64,000 nucleotides of DNA from a virus, in IMG/VR virus record IMGVR_UViG_3300014913_000006. The stretch is one strand, 5' to 3'. The position numbers were made by a program, and so were the translations under genes. Below the pieces are notes generated by a model. That model was not told the DNA's origin, did no database searches, and saw only the letters and a program-made list of their open reading frames with translations. Each line of letters starts with the position of its first letter. Within the stretch, counting starts at the first letter, position 1. Positions 33,431 through 64,000 of this stretch are shown piece by piece.

Positions 33431-36400
33431 CTAGATTCGCTTGCCCTTCTTCACAGCCTTGAAAACCCCGCCCTGACGTGTTTCGTGGGCGTTCCTCATA
33501 CGGCCAACTCCAGCCCCACGGTACATTGCTTCGTTTTTCGGTGATTTCTTCCTTTTCTCGATATTCCCTGCCACGTCTTCATAGTCGATATCATCAGGGG
33601 TGGCGATTTCAGTGTTGTAGATGTACTTGTGAGACAGCAGGAGGGCTGTGTAGCGATCCTTGAGAAGTCTACCCTTACGGGCACGACCCTCGACGGCTCC
33701 GACCTTGACAACCTGTGGGGTGTCGAATCTCTCTCTGCCTGTCGCAGTTTCGCTCATCTGGATGGTACAAAGCTCATTCTTTAATTCTTCAAGATTGAAC
33801 ACATTTTCCTCGAAGGTGTCGAAAATGACACCAGCCGACTTTTCAGCCTCTATGGCGGCATACATTTTCACGCTATCGAAGGCGGGGAACAATAGGGTAC
33901 GTGTCTCCAGGCTCTTGTGCAGGGCAATGTTGGCATCCTGGTTGTACTCAGTGCTTTGCTTGACGAGATGGAGGATGTGGCGTCCATCTGTCTCGCCATC
34001 GGTTTCCTTCGGTTCGTCGAAGTCGATTACCTCATAGATCGGGAAATCGCCCTCATCCATATTCATCAGTTTCTTGTTTCGCAACATCTCCGCTACGGCG
34101 TAGCCACCACCCTGACTATCCATCTCGATGCGCACAGGACTGAATAGCCGAACCACTTCACGAATCCTCGCACAACAATATGCGTAGTAGTCATCGTCGG
34201 TAATCAACCCGCGCTTCTTGCGCTTCATGAATTCCTTTTTGTTCACAGCCCAACAATAGACTACGCGATAGTGGTTGGGCCAAACTTCGGTCATAGTGAT
34301 CGCAAGATTGTCTCGTTCGGCAGCGGGGTCAACACCCATCACATACTTCCGCTTCGACTGGGCTCTCATAAGTGGAGTGAATGTTACAGCACCGTCTGGT
34401 GTTGTTATCGGCTTATTGGGTCCGACAGTACATGCCTCAATCAAGCTACGTGGATAGAACCCATCTGAGTCTTTGACGAAAACAGCCCCATACTCCATGA
34501 GGTAGATGTTGCGAGGGAGTGTCGCCTTGGCGTGAGCCAACTGTCTTTGGTCCAGTAGGCCTTCGGGTAGATGTGTATGCGGGATACGAATGATAGAATA
34601 GTCCCTATGGTTGAAGCCATCGGGGACGAGGTTCTCGCCTCCGAAAATCTGAGCCACCTTCTCTGGATCACCTTTGCTGGCAATGATCTCTTTCCACATC
34701 TGATATCTCTTGGCAAAATGATTGAAAGCATAGTATGCTGTACCAGAATACACGATTTGGTTACCGCGCATCTTATCATCGTCGGTTGTCAGTCTCTTCT
34801 TCTCCCCTGCTGGCAGATCGAGTTTTGCCAACTGTTTCTCAAATGCTAGTTTCTTCGCTTCCTCCACAGGAGTTTTTGCCGTCGCGGCAAAACCACGCAC
34901 AACCACATCGAATACATCCTCTGGGATGGATGCGAACTCGTCGGCGATAACGACGTTAGCGCGGAAACCTCTGATTTTCGTGTTGTGACTGTAAAAGCCA
35001 TTGGCACAATATTCATGGCCATCTGGAACATGAACATCGAATGCAACACACTCATCATCTTCTATTGAAACGATTTCGTCATAATAAACATCTGGATCAG
35101 CAAGACAACGAACAGTATCAATGCGTGAATCATCTATGTGTCCATAAACTCGTAGAAAATTATCAACCAATGGCCTACTAACGGATTTTTTAACTTTTAG
35201 TCCACCCGCACAAACAGAAACACAATTGCTAGTACCGTGTTCAGCTCGATTGTTCTCTGAAATATCTATCATATCATCTAATACATCTGGAATGTTATCG
35301 TTCTGATCCATCCATCGTTTTTTCTTCTCGATTCCAGCCAGTAATTTATCTTGTTTCCTCTTCAGACGAAAACCTATTTCAGTAGCGAAAATCAACACGT
35401 CCCTACCAGTTATTGAAAGCTCATAGCATTCTTCCCATTTTTCGTCACGTTTACGAGATTTGACATGTGCTACGATTCCATAATGCAATAATATATACTG
35501 AAGTTGTCTAACTAGTTCTCTGCTGGTGTTATAAAATGTGACACCTATCTGGGTGCCACCTCGCTCTGTTGTAACCTGAACATGGCCATCCGTGTCGAAC
35601 AAACCGGAAATAAAAGCGGATGTTATATTACGTGGTGATTTGAGAATGGTGGACGGGAATTGTTTGTCTTTTGTTTTGAGATGATCAACGTCTATATCAA
35701 ATCTTCTGAATATAGCATCAATCTTTTTGTGTCCATACATATTCCAATGCACTATATCGGAAGATTGCTTGAAAGGACCAACAGCCTGAATGGCCTCGGC
35801 TAATTCTGTATCTTGTGTAGCAAAACCCAATCTGTATCCATTTTGGGCAATGAAACATCCACCCCCAGTAAGCAAACCGATACCATAAGCTTCGCTTTCT
35901 GAAATCTCACCATTTCCATTATGCCAGCGGACAGAACGATCTAATAAAATACGATCACCAATTTTTATTTCATCCATCTGTACCCACACAACACACTTGT
36001 TTCTAACAACTTTTAATCGATGATTATGAGTTGCGTTAAATTCGAATCCATGATGTGTCTTGATTTTTTTGGTTTTGGATGTTCCATTGCAATAAGATTC
36101 ATCACTCAATCTGAATTCTTTATTACCCCATACCAGTCTTTCTCTGTCTACGATATTTTTAGCAGATTGAAATAATGGCTGATCATCTGCGAGGGTTCCG
36201 AAACCATCTCCATAAAGTGTAAGCGTATCTTTTGAAGCACAGCCGTCCCCCATAGGCAGTGCGTAGATAATCGAATCGCCAATGCGAAAATAGCAAAGGT
36301 CCACATTCTGTCTGGGGCCAGCCTTCTTCCCGCCACCGACAATGTTGCGAAGAACAGGAGCATTTGTCCAGATGGTATCTATGTAGTTGAACACCAATCG

Positions 36401-36793
36401 AGCTTGACGTAAACCAGCACCAACGATAACGATCTTGGCACCTGGGTCCAACAACGCCCTTAGAACTGCATACACGGCCAGCATAAAGGACTTACTACCA
36501 CCACGACAGGCGATCAGCATTGGGAACGGAGTGTTCCACATCATCTGAAGCGTAGCGATCTGGATAGGAAACAGATCAAGCCCTAAGACCACCTTCGCTG
36601 TCCAGCCAATGTAGTTGATATCGAGCATCCTGCTGACGACTACCTGATCCAGCGGGTCTTTGGATTGCTTCAAATCCGTGAAAATGTGTTTGCGCACTGT
36701 TGGCACACGATCACGGTATGGGAACAGATACCCATATCGGCCTTGATCTGAATGCAATAAATCGTGTAATATTGTTTGTTGTTTTTTATTCAT
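33431..36793 (-). CDS. terL: Terminase large subunit containing an intein
   Basis: Walker A-like ACRGGSKSF, Walker B IRGFRANVVIADEF, MEYGA.F, nuclease MGVDPA and KDRYTA. Confidence 0.9.
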   Translation of the reverse strand: MNKKQQTILHDLLHSDQGRYGYLFPYRDRVPTVRKHIFTDLKQSKDPLDQVVVSRMLDINYIGWTAKVVLGLDLFPIQIATLQMMWNTPFPMLIACRGGSKSFMLAVYAVLRALLDPGAKIVIVGAGLRQARLVFNYIDTIWTNAPVLRNIVGGGKKAGPRQNVDLCYFRIGDSIIYALPMGDGCASKDTLTLYGDGFGTLADDQPLFQSAKNIVDRERLVWGNKEFRLSDESYCNGTSKTKKIKTHHGFEFNATHNHRLKVVRNKCVVWVQMDEIKIGDRILLDRSVRWHNGNGEISESEAYGIGLLTGGGCFIAQNGYRLGFATQDTELAEAIQAVGPFKQSSDIVHWNMYGHKKIDAIFRRFDIDVDHLKTKDKQFPSTILKSPRNITSAFISGLFDTDGHVQVTTERGGTQIGVTFYNTSRELVRQLQYILLHYGIVAHVKSRKRDEKWEECYELSITGRDVLIFATEIGFRLKRKQDKLLAGIEKKKRWMDQNDNIPDVLDDMIDISENNRAEHGTSNCVSVCAGGLKVKKSVSRPLVDNFLRVYGHIDDSRIDTVRCLADPDVYYDEIVSIEDDECVAFDVHVPDGHEYCANGFYSHNTKIRGFRANVVIADEFASIPEDVFDVVVRGFAATAKTPVEEAKKLAFEKQLAKLDLPAGEKKRLTTDDDKMRGNQIVYSGTAYYAFNHFAKRYQMWKEIIASKGDPEKVAQIFGGENLVPDGFNHRDYSIIRIPHTHLPEGLLDQRQLAHAKATLPRNIYLMEYGAVFVKDSDGFYPRSLIEACTVGPNKPITTPDGAVTFTPLMRAQSKRKYVMGVDPAAERDNLAITMTEVWPNHYRVVYCWAVNKKEFMKRKKRGLITDDDYYAYCCARIREVVRLFSPVRIEMDSQGGGYAVAEMLRNKKLMNMDEGDFPIYEVIDFDEPKETDGETDGRHILHLVKQSTEYNQDANIALHKSLETRTLLFPAFDSVKMYAAIEAEKSAGVIFDTFEENVFNLEELKNELCTIQMSETATGRERFDTPQVVKVGAVEGRARKGRLLKDRYTALLLSHKYIYNTEIATPDDIDYEDVAGNIEKRKKSPKNEAMYRGAGVGRMRNAHETRQGGVFKAVKKGKRI
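34982..36241 (-). mobile_element. Intein (420 aa) with LAGLIDADG endonuclease
   Basis: GDG|CASKDT ... ATHNH (block B) ... FISGLFDTDG ... FDVHVPDGHEYCANGFYSHN|T; lower GC than the exteins. Confidence 0.92.
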
Positions 36794-37190
36794 ATCGAAT
36801 ATCCAACCTATCTTTTTTAACATACCTGTTACACGCCAGACACAAAAGAGATAAATTGTTGAGATCAAAAAGCGTTGCCAACTGTTCACGAGATAATGCT
36901 GACGAAATTGGTATAAACCGATGTTCGTAGTTACCTAATTTTGTAGACCGCCTCTTTCTAACCCATTCGTTTTTCTTCTTCTTATATGAATCTGTCGAAT
37001 GATTGATTTTCTGATGTTGTCGCCGACACAGCAAACATTCCGGTTTCCCAGAAGGGTTGATATAAAATTCTGTTATCCCATGATGTCTACAAAGCATTAA
37101 AGCTCTCTTGTCATCAATCTTACGAATGATCGCTTTTTTGGGTTGACCAGGGGTAATATTCGTACTGAGATCATATCTCTTAGCACCCAA
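36786..37190 (-). pseudogene. HNH endonuclease with an in-frame internal deletion
   Basis: Aligns with 12380/29480 but jumps from LGNYEHR to FIPISSA, losing the CxxC...IDH segment. Confidence 0.7.
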
Positions 37191-59394: not shown

Positions 59395-59830
59395 ACCCAT
59401 CTCCGATTTTTTTTCAGGTGAAGGGCTGTCCGATAAGGCGGTTGATGCAGGTGCTCAGAAAAGGGGGGACCCCTGTTGTTGCCTAAAAGGCGGGGGTTGA
59501 AGTGGGTGTCAACTGTGCGGCATAAGGGTGAAGGACAAGGCGAGTGGTGCAAAGAAGAGTGTACACGAAAAGTGGGAACCAGTTGATTTTTCGAGCCTAC
59601 TATGACTAAGCCCCCATGCGTTATCGGACCCACCCCAGTTATCGGACCATTCTATTTATCGGGCGTAGCCCTCCAGGCCGAGTTATCGGACCTCCCACCC
59701 ACCAAACTTATCGGACCAACACACCTGATCCAATCCTGAAAAAATTATCGGATGCATGTGTTATAGGTCTATGCTCTTGCATGACATGCAAGGCAAGTTA
59801 TCGGACCCAAAAGATTCCTGTGCTTCCCCC

Positions 59831-59859
59831 TTGCTATCGTGTCGAACGTATCCTATACT
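59831..59859 (+). promoter_or_regulatory. sigma70-type promoter TTGCTA-N17-TATACT
   Basis: Canonical spacing; followed by an RBS and the ORF at 59902. Confidence 0.65.
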
Positions 59860-59901
59860 CTATTAGAACGAACGAACGAAACACAACGAAAGGAACGAAC
59901 G

Positions 59902-60063
59902 ATGAATTATCAGACGCTACTCGACAATACGATGCACTGGCTGTTCTCCGACCCTATGCACGCGGTGTGTGTTGTGGCTGGAATTGCTGTGCTAGGTGCG
60001 ATAAACGGGGTCCGCCTCAGCTTGAAACGTTGCAAAGGTCCGTATAACGGACGCATCCTGTAG
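59902..60063 (+). CDS. Small membrane protein (putative early gene)
   Basis: AAGGA RBS; one TM helix. Confidence 0.55.
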   Translation: MNYQTLLDNTMHWLFSDPMHAVCVVAGIAVLGAINGVRLSLKRCKGPYNGRIL

Positions 60064-60096
60064 GGTACGATAACCACCAGAACAAGGGGCGATAAC

Positions 60097-60333
60097 ATGA
60101 ACATGACACTCATCAAGTATCGGACCACCGAAACGCCCCATAATCAGTACGCTGTAGTGCCAACGATATGGGTATCGGACCTACTCCACTGGCTCACGTT
60201 ATCGGAATTAGCAGAGATTATCTCGACCGATAATAACTGTGACGATGGAGCTATCCTTCCGATAACATGGCCGAGTTATGAGACGTGCCGTGAGTGTATG
60301 AGAATATCGGACGTAGTGGCCTTGTGCCGATAA
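60097..60333 (+). CDS. Small hypothetical protein
   Basis: AGGGG RBS; motif-rich sequence. Confidence 0.45.
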   Translation: MNMTLIKYRTTETPHNQYAVVPTIWVSDLLHWLTLSELAEIISTDNNCDDGAILPITWPSYETCRECMRISDVVALCR

Positions 60334-60566
60334 TAAGGAGAACGCCATGTATGGTAAAGCTACGCTTGACATCCCAGCGGTTGGAGATATCGGACACTCA
60401 CACACAGAAGGACTATCGGACCTACCAAGACCAACAACGATACGGATAATATCGGACCATGCTCGGCTCGTTATCGGACCTTGGGCCGTGAGGCGTGTTA
60501 TGGGACGTGCGAGGTGAGTTTGTTATAGGGCGTTCCTTTTTTTCTGAAGATTGTTGGTTATGGGAC

Positions 60567-60595
60567 TTGACTTCTGGTCGCATGTATGCTATAAT
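60567..60595 (+). promoter_or_regulatory. sigma70 promoter TTGACT-N17-TATAAT
   Basis: Near-consensus with extended TG. Confidence 0.85.
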
Positions 60596-60620
60596 ATAGT
60601 GTACACGAAAGGAGACAATT

Positions 60621-60965
60621 ATGGGACCATTCGATGATCTCGGACCATACGCCGAAACTACGATAACGACAAGGAAAACGGACGCTGACAAGGCGACCGA
60701 TAATGAATCCCATTTCGGTCATCTTGTTATCGGAACCTTGTTGCTTGGTCCAGCATTATGGGTCGTTGTGTTTATGGGACTATTCTGCTGGAAGTATATC
60801 GGACCTCTCTCCGCTGCCGGTCTTATCGGACTAGGCTTCTGGGCGTGCGGACATTATGGGACTAACAGGTCGGTTCTGGACCGCTTCCGTTATCGGACCA
60901 CCAAGGCGCAGCGAGAGACAATCCAGCGCAGATTATCGGACATCAAAGATTCTGGAAGAAAGTAG
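60621..60965 (+). CDS. Membrane protein with 2 TM helices (putative early gene)
   Basis: AAGGAG RBS. Confidence 0.65.
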   Translation: MGPFDDLGPYAETTITTRKTDADKATDNESHFGHLVIGTLLLGPALWVVVFMGLFCWKYIGPLSAAGLIGLGFWACGHYGTNRSVLDRFRYRTTKAQRETIQRRLSDIKDSGRK

Positions 60966-60975
60966 GTTATCGGGT

Positions 60976-61004
60976 TTGACTTTTGGTCGTGCCGATGGTA
61001 TAAT
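60976..61004 (+). promoter_or_regulatory. sigma70 promoter TTGACT-N17-TATAAT
   Basis: Near-identical to 60567, including the downstream ATAGTGTA. Confidence 0.85.
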
Positions 61005-61054
61005 ATAGTGTAGGCGAAAACGAACGATTCTCGAACCTTTATGGGAGATTCACG

Positions 61055-61420
61055 ATGCAGAAAGTTATCGGACAGACGGGCACGAGTGTGCTATCGGACG
61101 AGAAAATCCAGTATAAGCTGGCGAGAAAGCGGACGGTCCGATATTGGTACATGAAGTGCCAGCATGGTTATCGGGCCGAGGTGGTTGGGCCATTTCACAG
61201 CGAACTTTATGGGGCGTGTGGTTTTGGGACCAAGAAGACTTCGGCTAAAGCCGCACTTGAACGGAACCTTGCCAACAACCAAGGTTATATCGGACGCTTG
61301 TTGTTCACGACCGTAGATGAAGCCGATAATGTTGGTCGTGTCGATCCAAGGTTATTGGACGAGAATGCGACATCACGACCGATAAGCAACGGCGAACTTA
61401 TCGGAAGCGCTGGGCAGTAG
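61055..61420 (+). CDS. Hypothetical protein (putative early gene)
   Basis: GGGAG RBS; 121 aa. Confidence 0.7.
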   Translation: MQKVIGQTGTSVLSDEKIQYKLARKRTVRYWYMKCQHGYRAEVVGPFHSELYGACGFGTKKTSAKAALERNLANNQGYIGRLLFTTVDEADNVGRVDPRLLDENATSRPISNGELIGSAGQ

Positions 61421-62186
61421 GTTCTCGGACGTAGGGCGGGGTGGGGTTTTCGGACCTTGCCCCGCTCGGTGGAGTGTGAGTTATGAGACTCTGGCGACTA
61501 TCGGACGAACAATGGTTTTGGCGCAAGACTGTATTTCTTGCGGTTCTGATAACCATAGCAATATGGTAGGAGTGATAACATGGCACGTTACCGGACCACA
61601 GCCAGGACCATCTGCCGTTATCGGACCTTGGGCCGTGAGGATATTATGGGACTTGTGCGATAACGTTTACCCTGTGTGTGTTCTAGTACATGGATTATCA
61701 CTCTGGTCCGGGAATATCGAATGTGAGTTTTTTGCGTGACATTATGGGACGTTATCGGACCTTCACCTCGGTCGGACGTTCCGAATTATCGGACGTTCCG
61801 CCGTGGGCGATTATGGGACGGGTCCGGGAACTAGTTTGGTGCGTGTGATAATATGGCCGTTTTTGAGCACGAGAACGCGGTTTTCGGGTTCTGGGACGTG
61901 CAGATTATCGGAAAGGGTAGATAATATCCCGGTTTTCGGCGTTTTCGCGGGTTATCGGACCAAAAGCGGCGCGAGTTATGAGACTCGCGTAACGTGTTTT
62001 ATCGGAACATCCGGTAATGTAGCGGTTTGGGGCGGATTGTGCGAGTTTTTATCGGCGAACGACCGATATGTGATCTCAGAAAACGGACGTAATCGCGACT
62101 TCGATATTATCGGGCGTTGCCTATAATATGTGCGTTTTTGGGCGATCAGGCGGGAAGTTATCGGCAAAAAATTCTGAGAATGAGTG

Positions 62187-62215
62187 TTGACGACTTGTAT
62201 AACTAACGGTATAAT
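62187..62215 (+). promoter_or_regulatory. sigma70 promoter TTGACG-N17-TATAAT
   Basis: Near-consensus; drives the structured leader, the 62441 ORF and probably the large ncRNA. Confidence 0.85.
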
Positions 62216-62440
62216 CTAATGTAGGACGAAACGATAACACAACGAAAAGAACGGACCGAAACGGTCCGCGTGTGTTATTGGACGCAAACCGACGCGGTTA
62301 TCACAACCGCCGATAATTAGTGGCCTGCGCAATGTAGGTCCGAATATGAGTTTCAGTACGAGTTCACTACTTGTCCGTCCGATAGTCTGGACGGTGTAGT
62401 CGTGGATTATCGGGCGGGCTTTGTCTCTGGGGAGATGATT

Positions 62441-62755
62441 ATGAGTCAGTCTGATAATGCTGGAACGTCGGTCGAGTTTGGTGCGAAGCAACTCCAGGCC
62501 AATGCTGCTGTCTACCATGGCGCGAAGCGGATCGTCGATGCCGCGTCTGGTTTCGACAGTCTCGATGACGCCGTCGCTGCGCTCACGGAAGCGTGGGAAG
62601 TCTTGGAGGCGCAGGTCGAGTCGGGCGCGGGATACACGCCCGATAGGGAGTTGGGCTTCGGGTCTGATAACGCCGCCGTGATTGCCGAGTCGATTCTCGG
62701 TCGTCGCAACAGCGTCGGCGCTACTCGCAGGGCGTTCAACAACATGGGCAAGTAG
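62441..62755 (+). CDS. Hypothetical helical protein
   Basis: GGGGAG RBS; strongly biased codons. Confidence 0.7.
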   Translation: MSQSDNAGTSVEFGAKQLQANAAVYHGAKRIVDAASGFDSLDDAVAALTEAWEVLEAQVESGAGYTPDRELGFGSDNAAVIAESILGRRNSVGATRRAFNNMGK

Positions 62756-62804
62756 TCTGCGGAGTGTCTGCCGCACCGCGCCCCTATCTTATGGGGCGTG
62801 GACC

Positions 62805-63455
62805 GATGGACATTCAGATGTAAAGTCTGGATTGAACCGCTTGGCTAGGACAACCTAGTCGTTATAGGCACCCAATATAGTGTCAGCGGTTCCCATAACC
62901 AATCACAGCGGGTGGTCCGTTAATCGCGCGACTATTCCCGGACGGGATTGGGTAGTAGTCCGATAGTCTGCCCAAGTAGGGTCTGTCGAGCGCGCAGGAT
63001 GTGCGTCTAGGGTCTGAACGGGGGTAACAGTTATCGGTCGAACTCCAGTCTTAGAGGCGACAAAACGCAGAGCCCCAGTCGTGGGCTCGGTCTGCGCCGT
63101 CAAAGCGTGGGCGGGATAAGTGGCGAATCGTCTGCACGATTCCTTGTATGTCTGGCAGGAACCCGATTCAGTGTCGGGTCGCAAGACAGAAAGGGCAGGT
63201 CGTGTTGACTATTCTACGGTTCGTCATGGTAATCCGTCTTCGTTGGTGTAGGCTCAAAAGGTTATTGTCGTGGGATAGGCATTTCCAGTAGCAAGTCTAG
63301 TTGATTTCGTCGCAACGATTTCTTTCGTAAAGGTCTGAAACGTCATTGCTGGTGGCGCTAGGGTCGGCGGGTTGGATAGCGGCGCGATCCCGATTTGCTG
63401 GTTAGGTCTTAGTCTGAGGCGCGCAACGGGTATTGCAGTCTCGGTCTTTGCTACC
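62805..63455 (+). ncRNA. Large structured ncRNA, GOLLD/ROOL-like
   Basis: No credible ORF; at least 10 helices; GCAA tetraloops; AGTA/GAA E-loop-like motifs; CTCAAAAGG and a 3' TCTCRGTCTT, which I recall from GOLLD-type phage RNAs. Confidence 0.6.
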
Positions 63456-64000
63456 ATATTGCTGAACGACACGACAGAACGGACGGGTTGAATAAACGGA
63501 ACAATTGCGCTGGCGCAACCGTCTCGACTCGATCAGTTCTAAAACAAAGGACCCAAGAAACTGTCCTGGAATCACAAACAGCCAGATTTTGTTTGCTAGG
63601 GCATGGTTCAATCGTTTTGTGGGCGCTGGTGCATAAGTCGTATGGGACCAGCAGGATTAGATTTGGTGGGGAATCTTGTCCACTCTTTTTTGAATGTGGC
63701 GACAATGGCAAAAAGTCCCTGATATGGCGCATGGGTCCAAGCCTCTATGGCATCGACTGTGTCGTCCTGTCGGGGATTTCTTGCTGCGCTGTTATCGACC
63801 CCTCTCAACTACAGTCGTCACCGAGAAACTATCCGGGGGTTTTTCAGAGACTTCCGGGGTTTTTTGTGGTAGTCTGGGCGAATCTCTGGCACTGGTACAA
63901 AATCCAGGTTCAAGAAACGCTGGCTCGCGTTGGCTTGGGGTTTGCTTGTTATGGGGGTTAGGTACCTGACTGGCACAAAACAGGGCTCACGGGTCCGAAA

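Follow-up and report, generated by a model that had tools for sequence, protein, structure and literature searches.

A very large, multi-domain structured RNA behind a small early gene of uncultivated phages, apparently outside known RNA families

Does the 3' end of this viral DNA encode a giant structured RNA, and if so, of what kind? The stretch analysed here, referred to as the window, comprises 64,000 nucleotides of the IMG/VR record IMGVR_UViG_3300014913_000006. To our knowledge, elaborately folded bacterial or phage RNAs of more than ~500 nt are very rare, with OLE, GOLLD, ROOL, HEARO and raiA being essentially all of them; GOLLD and ROOL form RNA-only nanocages, yet their function is unknown. 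An earlier note, made from the letters alone, had placed an ornate, GOLLD/ROOL-like non-coding RNA of ~650 nt at 62805-63455. A real, folded RNA was found there, but these boundaries were too narrow, as the core runs from 62756 to ~63615. A large structured RNA is present at this place, far beyond chance. The explanation that best covers the evidence overall, and that we regard as probable, is that an early transcript carries a very large, structured, non-coding RNA belonging to a new family.

The RNA is surrounded by the early region of the phage, which has three rightward, near-consensus sigma-70 promoters (at 60567, 60976 and 62187). The sigma-70-type early promoter closest to the RNA (62187..62215, +) consists of TTGACG and TATAAT separated by 17 nt, with 11 of 12 consensus matches. 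Its -10 element (as TATAGT or TAAAGT) and a TGTA start region are kept in relatives; in the copy L007, the promoter reads TTGACT, 17 nt, TATAGT. It is followed by a structured 5' leader (62222..62440, +) with hairpins at ~62294-62310, 62322-62340 and 62373-62419, in the last of which GUCC(G/U)AUA is paired with UUAU(C/G)GGAC. The consensus fold of the leader (RNAalifold, 10 sequences) has 28 pairs, nine of them with compensatory double changes. An early gene encoding 104 amino acids comes next (62441..62755, +), and the RNA starts where its stop codon ends, at 62756. The structured core (62756..63615, +) measures ~860 nt, or ~940 nt when extended to an intrinsic-terminator-like hairpin with a U-run (63665..63692, +), which is the probable 3' end of the RNA. 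The corresponding GUGGG...UUGUCA(A/C)C with its U-run is located 55-130 nt beyond the last RNA domain (domain 7) in L015 and L018, and sequence resembling this terminator is also present in L025, L014, L007 and L008.

A second conserved terminator module (63791..63905, +) contains a hairpin at 63832-63858 and a U-run, followed by GGUAGUCUGGG. Most relatives have this module too, although its distance from the ORF stop varies (+1.1 to +2.2 kb); it is likely the end of the early operon, outside the RNA. In relatives, variable inserts (tRNAs and small ORFs) separate the RNA from this module. Another small module, AAAGCAG..GG(U/A)(A/U)GGGCCUACGGGCCGGGAA (hairpin GGCC-UAC-GGCC), was seen just 3' of domain 7 in L002, L007, L014, L015 and L008, and is missing from the window. 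The promoter search of the window found no promoter-like site between the 104-aa ORF and the RNA. Because of this, and because of the promoter, the terminators and the conserved leader, we infer from the sequence that the promoter, leader, ORF, RNA and terminator form a single early transcript of ~1.47 kb.

Related loci were found in three ways: via the 104-aa ORF, via a conserved DNA block and via a second DNA block. Besides that of the window, there are 13 distinct copies on viral or metagenomic contigs (L001, L002, L006, L007, L008, L011, L014, L015, L017, L018, L019, L020, L021 and L025); duplicates were recognized among the loci (L002 = L010 = L016; L006 = L013; L007 = L012; L015 = L024; L021 = L023). 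L001 continues as L003 on the other side of the 127-nt overlap of a circular contig of 165.5 kb. Because the two 127-nt ends of this contig, IMGVR_UViG_3300037247_000655 (165,526 bp; L001/L003/L004), are identical, the assembly is either circular or terminally redundant, and its junction lies within the RNA. In L020, a run of N begins ~40 nt past the last domain of the RNA (from ~5235 onward), so that its 3' flank is unreadable. Two further loci were dropped as chance matches: L009, which came from the pattern scan of metagenomes, aligned with none of the sequences, and L022, from the viral scan, had neither the ORF nor any similarity.

The carriers are uncultivated phages of ~160 kb from sediment or saline metagenomes, and the viral contigs measure 113-168 kb and contain terminase and portal genes. 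The window belongs to a contig of 160 kb and likewise encodes virion proteins, among them a portal protein and a large terminase with an intein. The intein interrupts the terminase gene (33431-36889, -) and includes a homing endonuclease domain of the LAGLIDADG type (Pfam matches Intein_splicing and LAGLIDADG_3); the terminase part is only ~25% identical to the terminases of isolated phages (Bacillus phages). The earlier note had assigned the DNA to a probable planctomycete phage; the NCBIfam search returned no match for the supposed planctomycete signature protein. A blastn search of GenBank phages with the element found no match. Bacterial genome contigs, scanned with one 17-base pattern, yielded 57 loci, which is about the chance number, and none had extended similarity; there is therefore no evidence of copies in bacterial genomes.

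The + strand from 62756 to 63487 folds at -290 kcal/mol, with z = -4.4 versus dinucleotide shuffles; the - strand has z = -0.3. The consensus fold, calculated with RNAalifold on an alignment of 11 copies (10 distinct), comprises 217 pairs in 39 helices. Cells in a standard pair made up 93.3% of the observed total, compared to 84.0% after shuffling of the 3' letters, a control that does not correct for phylogeny, and 34-39% after sliding the partner by 1-3 columns, a control that does (fold alignments comprised 10-15 sequences). The covariation check suggested in the earlier note came out positive, in that 100 of the 217 pairs had compensatory double changes (51 in the shuffles, ~35 when slid); the covariation score was 0.388 (0.213 and ~0.08, respectively), and 0 of 500 shuffles reached the observed pairing and covariation values. 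Sequences outside the derivation of the fold still fit it, with 87% (L021), 89% (L008) and 79% (L025) of cells paired, versus 34-41% when slid. As to the kind of RNA, the earlier note was correct in proposing a giant, ornate phage RNA downstream of an early promoter.

A missed protein-coding gene was considered and ruled out by flat codon periodicity, frame-breaking indels and the lack of a shared open frame. Variable columns by codon position were 0.64/0.68/0.95 in the ORF and 0.75/0.74/0.74 in the RNA element. Among 204 indels in the element, 188 were not multiples of three (remainders 1/2/0 = 145/43/16). No ORF across the element exceeds 93 aa in the window, and the longest (<94 aa) is not common to the relatives. 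G.U pairs account for 19% of paired cells, and canonical pairing in the helices amounts to 93% when they are read on the + strand, compared to 75% for the - strand; both features identify the RNA as the + strand.

Six of the ten helices that the earlier note had listed are among those with covariation (TTCAGA/TCTGGA, GAACCGCT/AGCGGTTC, GGCTAGG/CCTAGTC, GGCAC/GTGTC, GAGCCC/GGGCTC and CCCGAT/GTCGGG). GCGCGCA/TGTGCGT is weakly supported, with changes on one side only. Three others (TTGGGTAG/CTGCCCAA, GAATCGT/ACGATTC and GTC-GCAA-GAC) are not conserved, and the covarying long-range helices 11/12 and 21/22 take their place.

The fold was divided into seven domains, all on the + strand. Domain 1 (62764..62830) consists of a long hairpin with a variable tip (helices 2-3) and a hairpin at 62814-62830 (helices 4-5); the first helix is recognizable in the second subtype of the family (subtype B, described below) too. 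Domain 2 (62834..62940) has a three-way junction (helices 6-8) and a hairpin (helices 9-10), with a near-invariant unpaired CCCAUAACCAA at 62892-62902. Domain 3 (62944..63088) is built of long-range helices 11-15 followed by hairpins 16 and 17. In helix 12, GUCCGAUAGUC pairs with GUUAUCGGUC, and the pairing is maintained in L007 as CUUAUAAU/GUUAUAGG; helix 17 has four covarying pairs. Domain 4 (63089..63254) is an extended multi-helix arm (helices 19-26), with double changes in 8 of 11 pairs of helix 21 and 4 of 8 pairs of helix 22. Domain 5 (63265..63476; helices 27-32) starts with a near-invariant UUGUCGUGGGAUAGGCA (63265-63281) and includes a block, GAUAGGCAUU...CAAGUCU, that is common to both subtypes; nine covarying pairs were counted in each of helices 29 and 31. 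Domain 6 (63484..63531) is a hairpin (helices 33-35) whose inner stem covaries as UUGCG/CGCAA, CCGC/GCGG, UUCG/CGAA and UCGC/GCGA. Domain 7 (63542..63612) is the 3'-terminal hairpin domain and is kept across both subtypes.

A covariation search for non-nested helices (pseudoknots) gave one weak candidate, a loop-loop pairing of CAGY at 63169-63172 (loop of helix 26) with RCUG at 63348-63351 (loop of helix 31). One of its positions changes from C-G to U-A in L017 and is U.G in the window. A local hairpin at 62948-62975 that would expose GUCCGAUAG was rejected; it is not conserved, and the segment pairs intramolecularly with GUUAUCGGUC.

Covariance models of single domains were used to delimit the family. 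Model R1 represents domain 2, and three type-A copies were held out of its seed. It had exactly one match in the window and in each other type-A copy searched, except for L008, in which this part is missing; the held-out copies scored 148 (L024), 129 (L021) and 113 bits (L025). It matched none of six bacterial control loci and neither of the subtype B loci (L001/L003 and L019). Over 880 nt, the two subtype B sequences, L001 and L019, have a mutual identity of 73%, but what they have in common with the window is limited to the first helix, domain 7 and the GAUAGGCAUU block. Their consensus fold, derived from these two sequences, has 20 double-compensatory pairs (0-2 when slid). Model R2, the covariance model of domain 7, was built from type-A copies only and had one match in every member, including the subtype B loci L019 (65.9 bits) and L003 (65.8 bits), and none in the controls. 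Over 15 distinct copies, 97.8% of the domain 7 cells are paired, and double changes occur in 15 of its 19 pairs. Since R1 is confined to type A and R2 is found in all members, the family has a universal 3' domain and a replaceable 5' body.

The region is rich in repeated words. GTCT occurs 18 times in a 730-nt stretch around the element (3.5 expected), and the excess is retained in relatives, whose homologous stretches have 11-18 GTCT versus 1-6 AGAC per kb. Eleven of the 18 words are conserved, and most of them lie in helix strands paired via G.U wobbles; GGGUCU pairs with GGGUCU twice (helices 14 and 31). These words could instead be sites at the DNA level, namely if the locus specified a replication-origin RNA, a G-rich early transcript that hybridizes to its template and primes DNA synthesis, like ColE1 RNA II or the T4 origin transcripts. 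The composition of the RNA (G 0.30, C 0.23), the strong promoter, a turn of the cumulative GC skew at ~59 kb, just upstream, and the strand bias of GTCTG in the last 2 kb of the window (16 GTCTG and 0 CAGAC on the + strand) would all suit such an RNA. However, the skew turn coincides with a switch in gene orientation, so an origin is not needed to account for it, and the GUCU words are inside covarying RNA helices. Neither an AT-rich unwinding element nor an initiator gene was identified beside the RNA, and 39 conserved helices exceed the known needs of priming RNAs. We therefore consider an origin RNA to be quite improbable.

A second word, TTAT(C/A/G)GGAC, saturates the sense strand of the early region at 59400-62420 of the window, and the same saturation was seen throughout the 3-4 kb that precede the ORF in L001, L002, L007, L011, L014-L021 and L025. 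TATCGG is present in 37 copies in the window between 59 and 63 kb, and TTATCGG in 19-52 copies ahead of the ORF in each relative whose upstream sequence extends to 2.8 kb or more; this abundance makes the word a hallmark of the whole phage group. The RNA and the leader contain one TTAT(C/G)GGAC copy each, paired to the complementary GUCC(G/U)AUA. Pairing of the RNA in trans with the early-region words was considered and is unsupported; TTATCGGAC is unchanged in L007 though helix 12 has changed.

The RNA lies directly after the 104-aa ORF in all 12 copies that reach far enough upstream (L008 has no upstream sequence). The ORF has 162 relatives in metagenomes. At its end is a ...GK-stop that is conserved in all relatives. 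The encoded protein is acidic (net charge of ~-5, counted from the translation) and all-helical, with a conserved basic C-terminal tail. It matched no Pfam, NCBIfam or PHROG family, and its AlphaFold2 model (pLDDT 78) had no PDB fold match at E <= 0.001 and no recognizable RNA-binding fold. That the RNA works together with this co-transcribed protein is a tentative proposal, weakened by the acidity of the protein and by its lack of a recognizable RNA-binding fold; with no fold match, the idea of a ribonucleoprotein rests only on the invariable genetic linkage. That the RNA acts as an RNA-only assembly we find doubtful; neither a self-complementary loop nor any other sign of multimerization was established.

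The tight linkage also invites a different explanation, in which the RNA is a cis-acting 3' UTR. It would then remain part of the ORF mRNA and govern how stable this mRNA is or how it is translated, for instance by blocking 3' exonucleases or, jointly with the leader, by serving as a translational switch. The covariation fits a trans-acting RNA and a cis-acting 3' UTR alike and cannot distinguish between them. The start of the RNA at the ORF stop, the lack of an internal promoter in the search of the window, the constant company of the ORF and the word/anti-word type of helix shared by the leader and the RNA are what a 3' UTR would predict. Yet ~860 nt with 39 covarying helices and near-invariant unpaired blocks far exceed the needs of known bacterial 3' UTR stabilizers. 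Moreover, the RNA element is more tightly conserved than the adjacent ORF that it would serve: between L011 and the window, the ORF has 47% protein identity and the RNA element 74% DNA identity over 711 nt. The 3' flanks of some members point to release by processing, as in L006 and L019 the RNA borders at its 3' end on a gene for a tRNA or tRNA-like RNA, instead of the terminator hairpin. On balance, a cis-acting 3' UTR appears unlikely.

In other relatives, a tRNA lies farther past the RNA (~115 nt in L014, ~0.5 kb in L015 and several kb in L002 and L003). The contrast drawn in the earlier note, by which the RNA is situated in the early region rather than in the tRNA cluster, thus fails across the family, since tRNAs adjoin or trail the RNA in relatives. 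ARAGORN returned 'tRNA-???' with an abnormal anticodon loop for L006 (2504-2575, -) and L019 (5225-5299, +). With its 127 nt, the tRNA match in L014 (5197-5323, +) may well include an insertion or an intron.

For the new family of structured RNA that we prefer, the following course is proposed. Transcription on the + strand would start at the 62187 promoter and yield an early transcript, of which the RNA would make up the 3' two-thirds; this transcript would pass through the structured leader and then the 104-aa ORF, and the RNA would begin at the ORF stop codon. It would fold into about seven domains (39 helices) and end at the intrinsic terminator at 63665-63692; in some relatives, RNase P cleavage at the tRNA-like gene at the RNA end would release it. 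As judged from sequence comparison, the chances are slightly better than even that, early in infection, the product accumulates as a structural RNA that is stable, folds on its own and acts in trans, as a scaffold comparable to GOLLD and ROOL. In a bolder version, to which we give little credence, giant phage RNAs would have a third class of independent evolutionary origin, represented by this RNA, which would assemble into a higher-order particle (an RNA-only homo-oligomer similar to the GOLLD and ROOL nanocages, or a ribonucleoprotein with the 104-aa protein) and would be made in the first minutes of infection for host takeover or counter-defence. If this were true, the GUCU words, which can self-pair via G.U wobbles (GGGUCU/GGGUCU), could give multivalent RNA-RNA contacts.

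The window and 12 relatives were searched with all 4227 models of Rfam 15 at the gathering score, and the only matches were tRNAs, of which seven are in the window, at 1.4-6.8 kb. With E up to 10, the region 62100-64000 of the window gave only a chance microRNA match; with E up to 5, seven relatives gave only tRNAs. Literature searches found no description of this RNA. A survey of IMG/VR reports candidates with an average length of 67 nt, which could represent fragments of this RNA at most (PMC10690425).

A ribozyme or mobile RNA, in the form of an intron (group I or group II) or of a novel element that cleaves or splices itself, would be in keeping with the size and multi-domain fold, which are within the range of ORF-less group II introns, and with the HNH_3 homing endonuclease genes located near the RNA in some relatives. 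The intron models (RF00028, RF00029 and RF02001 onward) nevertheless matched neither the window, searched with E up to 10, nor any of seven relatives, searched with E up to 5. The element occupies the same site in all members, as opposed to the sporadic occurrence of mobile introns. The ORF stop is conserved and no coding sequence follows it, which leaves splicing without exons to connect; the RNA is not an intron. The alternative of an intron fragment, raised in the earlier note, was abandoned on the same grounds, and we judge any ribozyme or mobile element to be very improbable here.

The earlier note's main suggestion, membership in GOLLD or ROOL, fared no better: the models for GOLLD (RF01998), ROOL (RF03087), OLE, HEARO and raiA had no match in the window or in the relatives searched. 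The motifs described there as GOLLD-like, CTCAAAAGG (63253) and TCTCGGTCTT (63439), fall in poorly conserved, variable columns. A divergent member would share the similar size, the phage origin, the ornate fold and the tRNA neighbourhood, which has been reported for both GOLLD and ROOL (10.1101/2024.12.08.627333). [quoted passage not shown] The arrangement seen here is analogous, with the 3' domain in both subtypes and the 5' model in type A only; the domains, however, are not homologous to those of GOLLD. ROOL has several predicted pseudoknots (10.1101/2024.12.08.627333) without a clear counterpart in this RNA, in which only the one candidate loop-loop pairing was seen. Membership in either family is largely refuted by the model searches and the variable motif columns, and we regard it as extremely unlikely.

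What, then, are the nearest known systems? GOLLD is a homo-14-mer nanocage (D7) with kissing loops and A-minor contacts, and ROOL, which is shorter (~580 nt), is a homo-octameric nanocage. Like GOLLD, the present RNA is phage-encoded, exceeds 800 nt and has an ornate multi-domain fold supported by covariation. It differs in that no homology to GOLLD is detectable in sequence or structure, and in its placement within an early unit, presumably driven by sigma-70, where it comes after a structured leader and a small, conserved ORF. With ROOL, it shares the character of a large ornate RNA of phages or prophages, near tRNA islands and with no known protein partner or function. OLE (RF01071) is another large structured RNA with small proteins encoded beside it and offers a precedent for a ribonucleoprotein; it is, however, chromosomal in extremophilic Firmicutes and not phage-borne, and its model had no match. 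ColE1 RNA II and the T4 origin transcripts are likewise structured, G-rich, several hundred nt long and made from a strong promoter, but they have few helices and form an RNA-DNA hybrid at an origin, whereas no origin features were found here.

By sequence and predicted fold, the RNA shares with GOLLD and ROOL the kind (phage origin, size, ornate fold and tRNAs) and not the family; it seems to be a giant phage RNA of a new class, outside every Rfam family. An unrelated, phage-borne, tRNA-adjacent RNA of equal size class would be independent evidence on the purpose of such RNAs. Its boundaries, domains, subtypes and covariance models suffice for in vitro transcription and cryo-EM without a cultured host. 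The early promoter, the structured leader and the linked small protein are handles that GOLLD and ROOL lack, and they offer the timing and a candidate partner.
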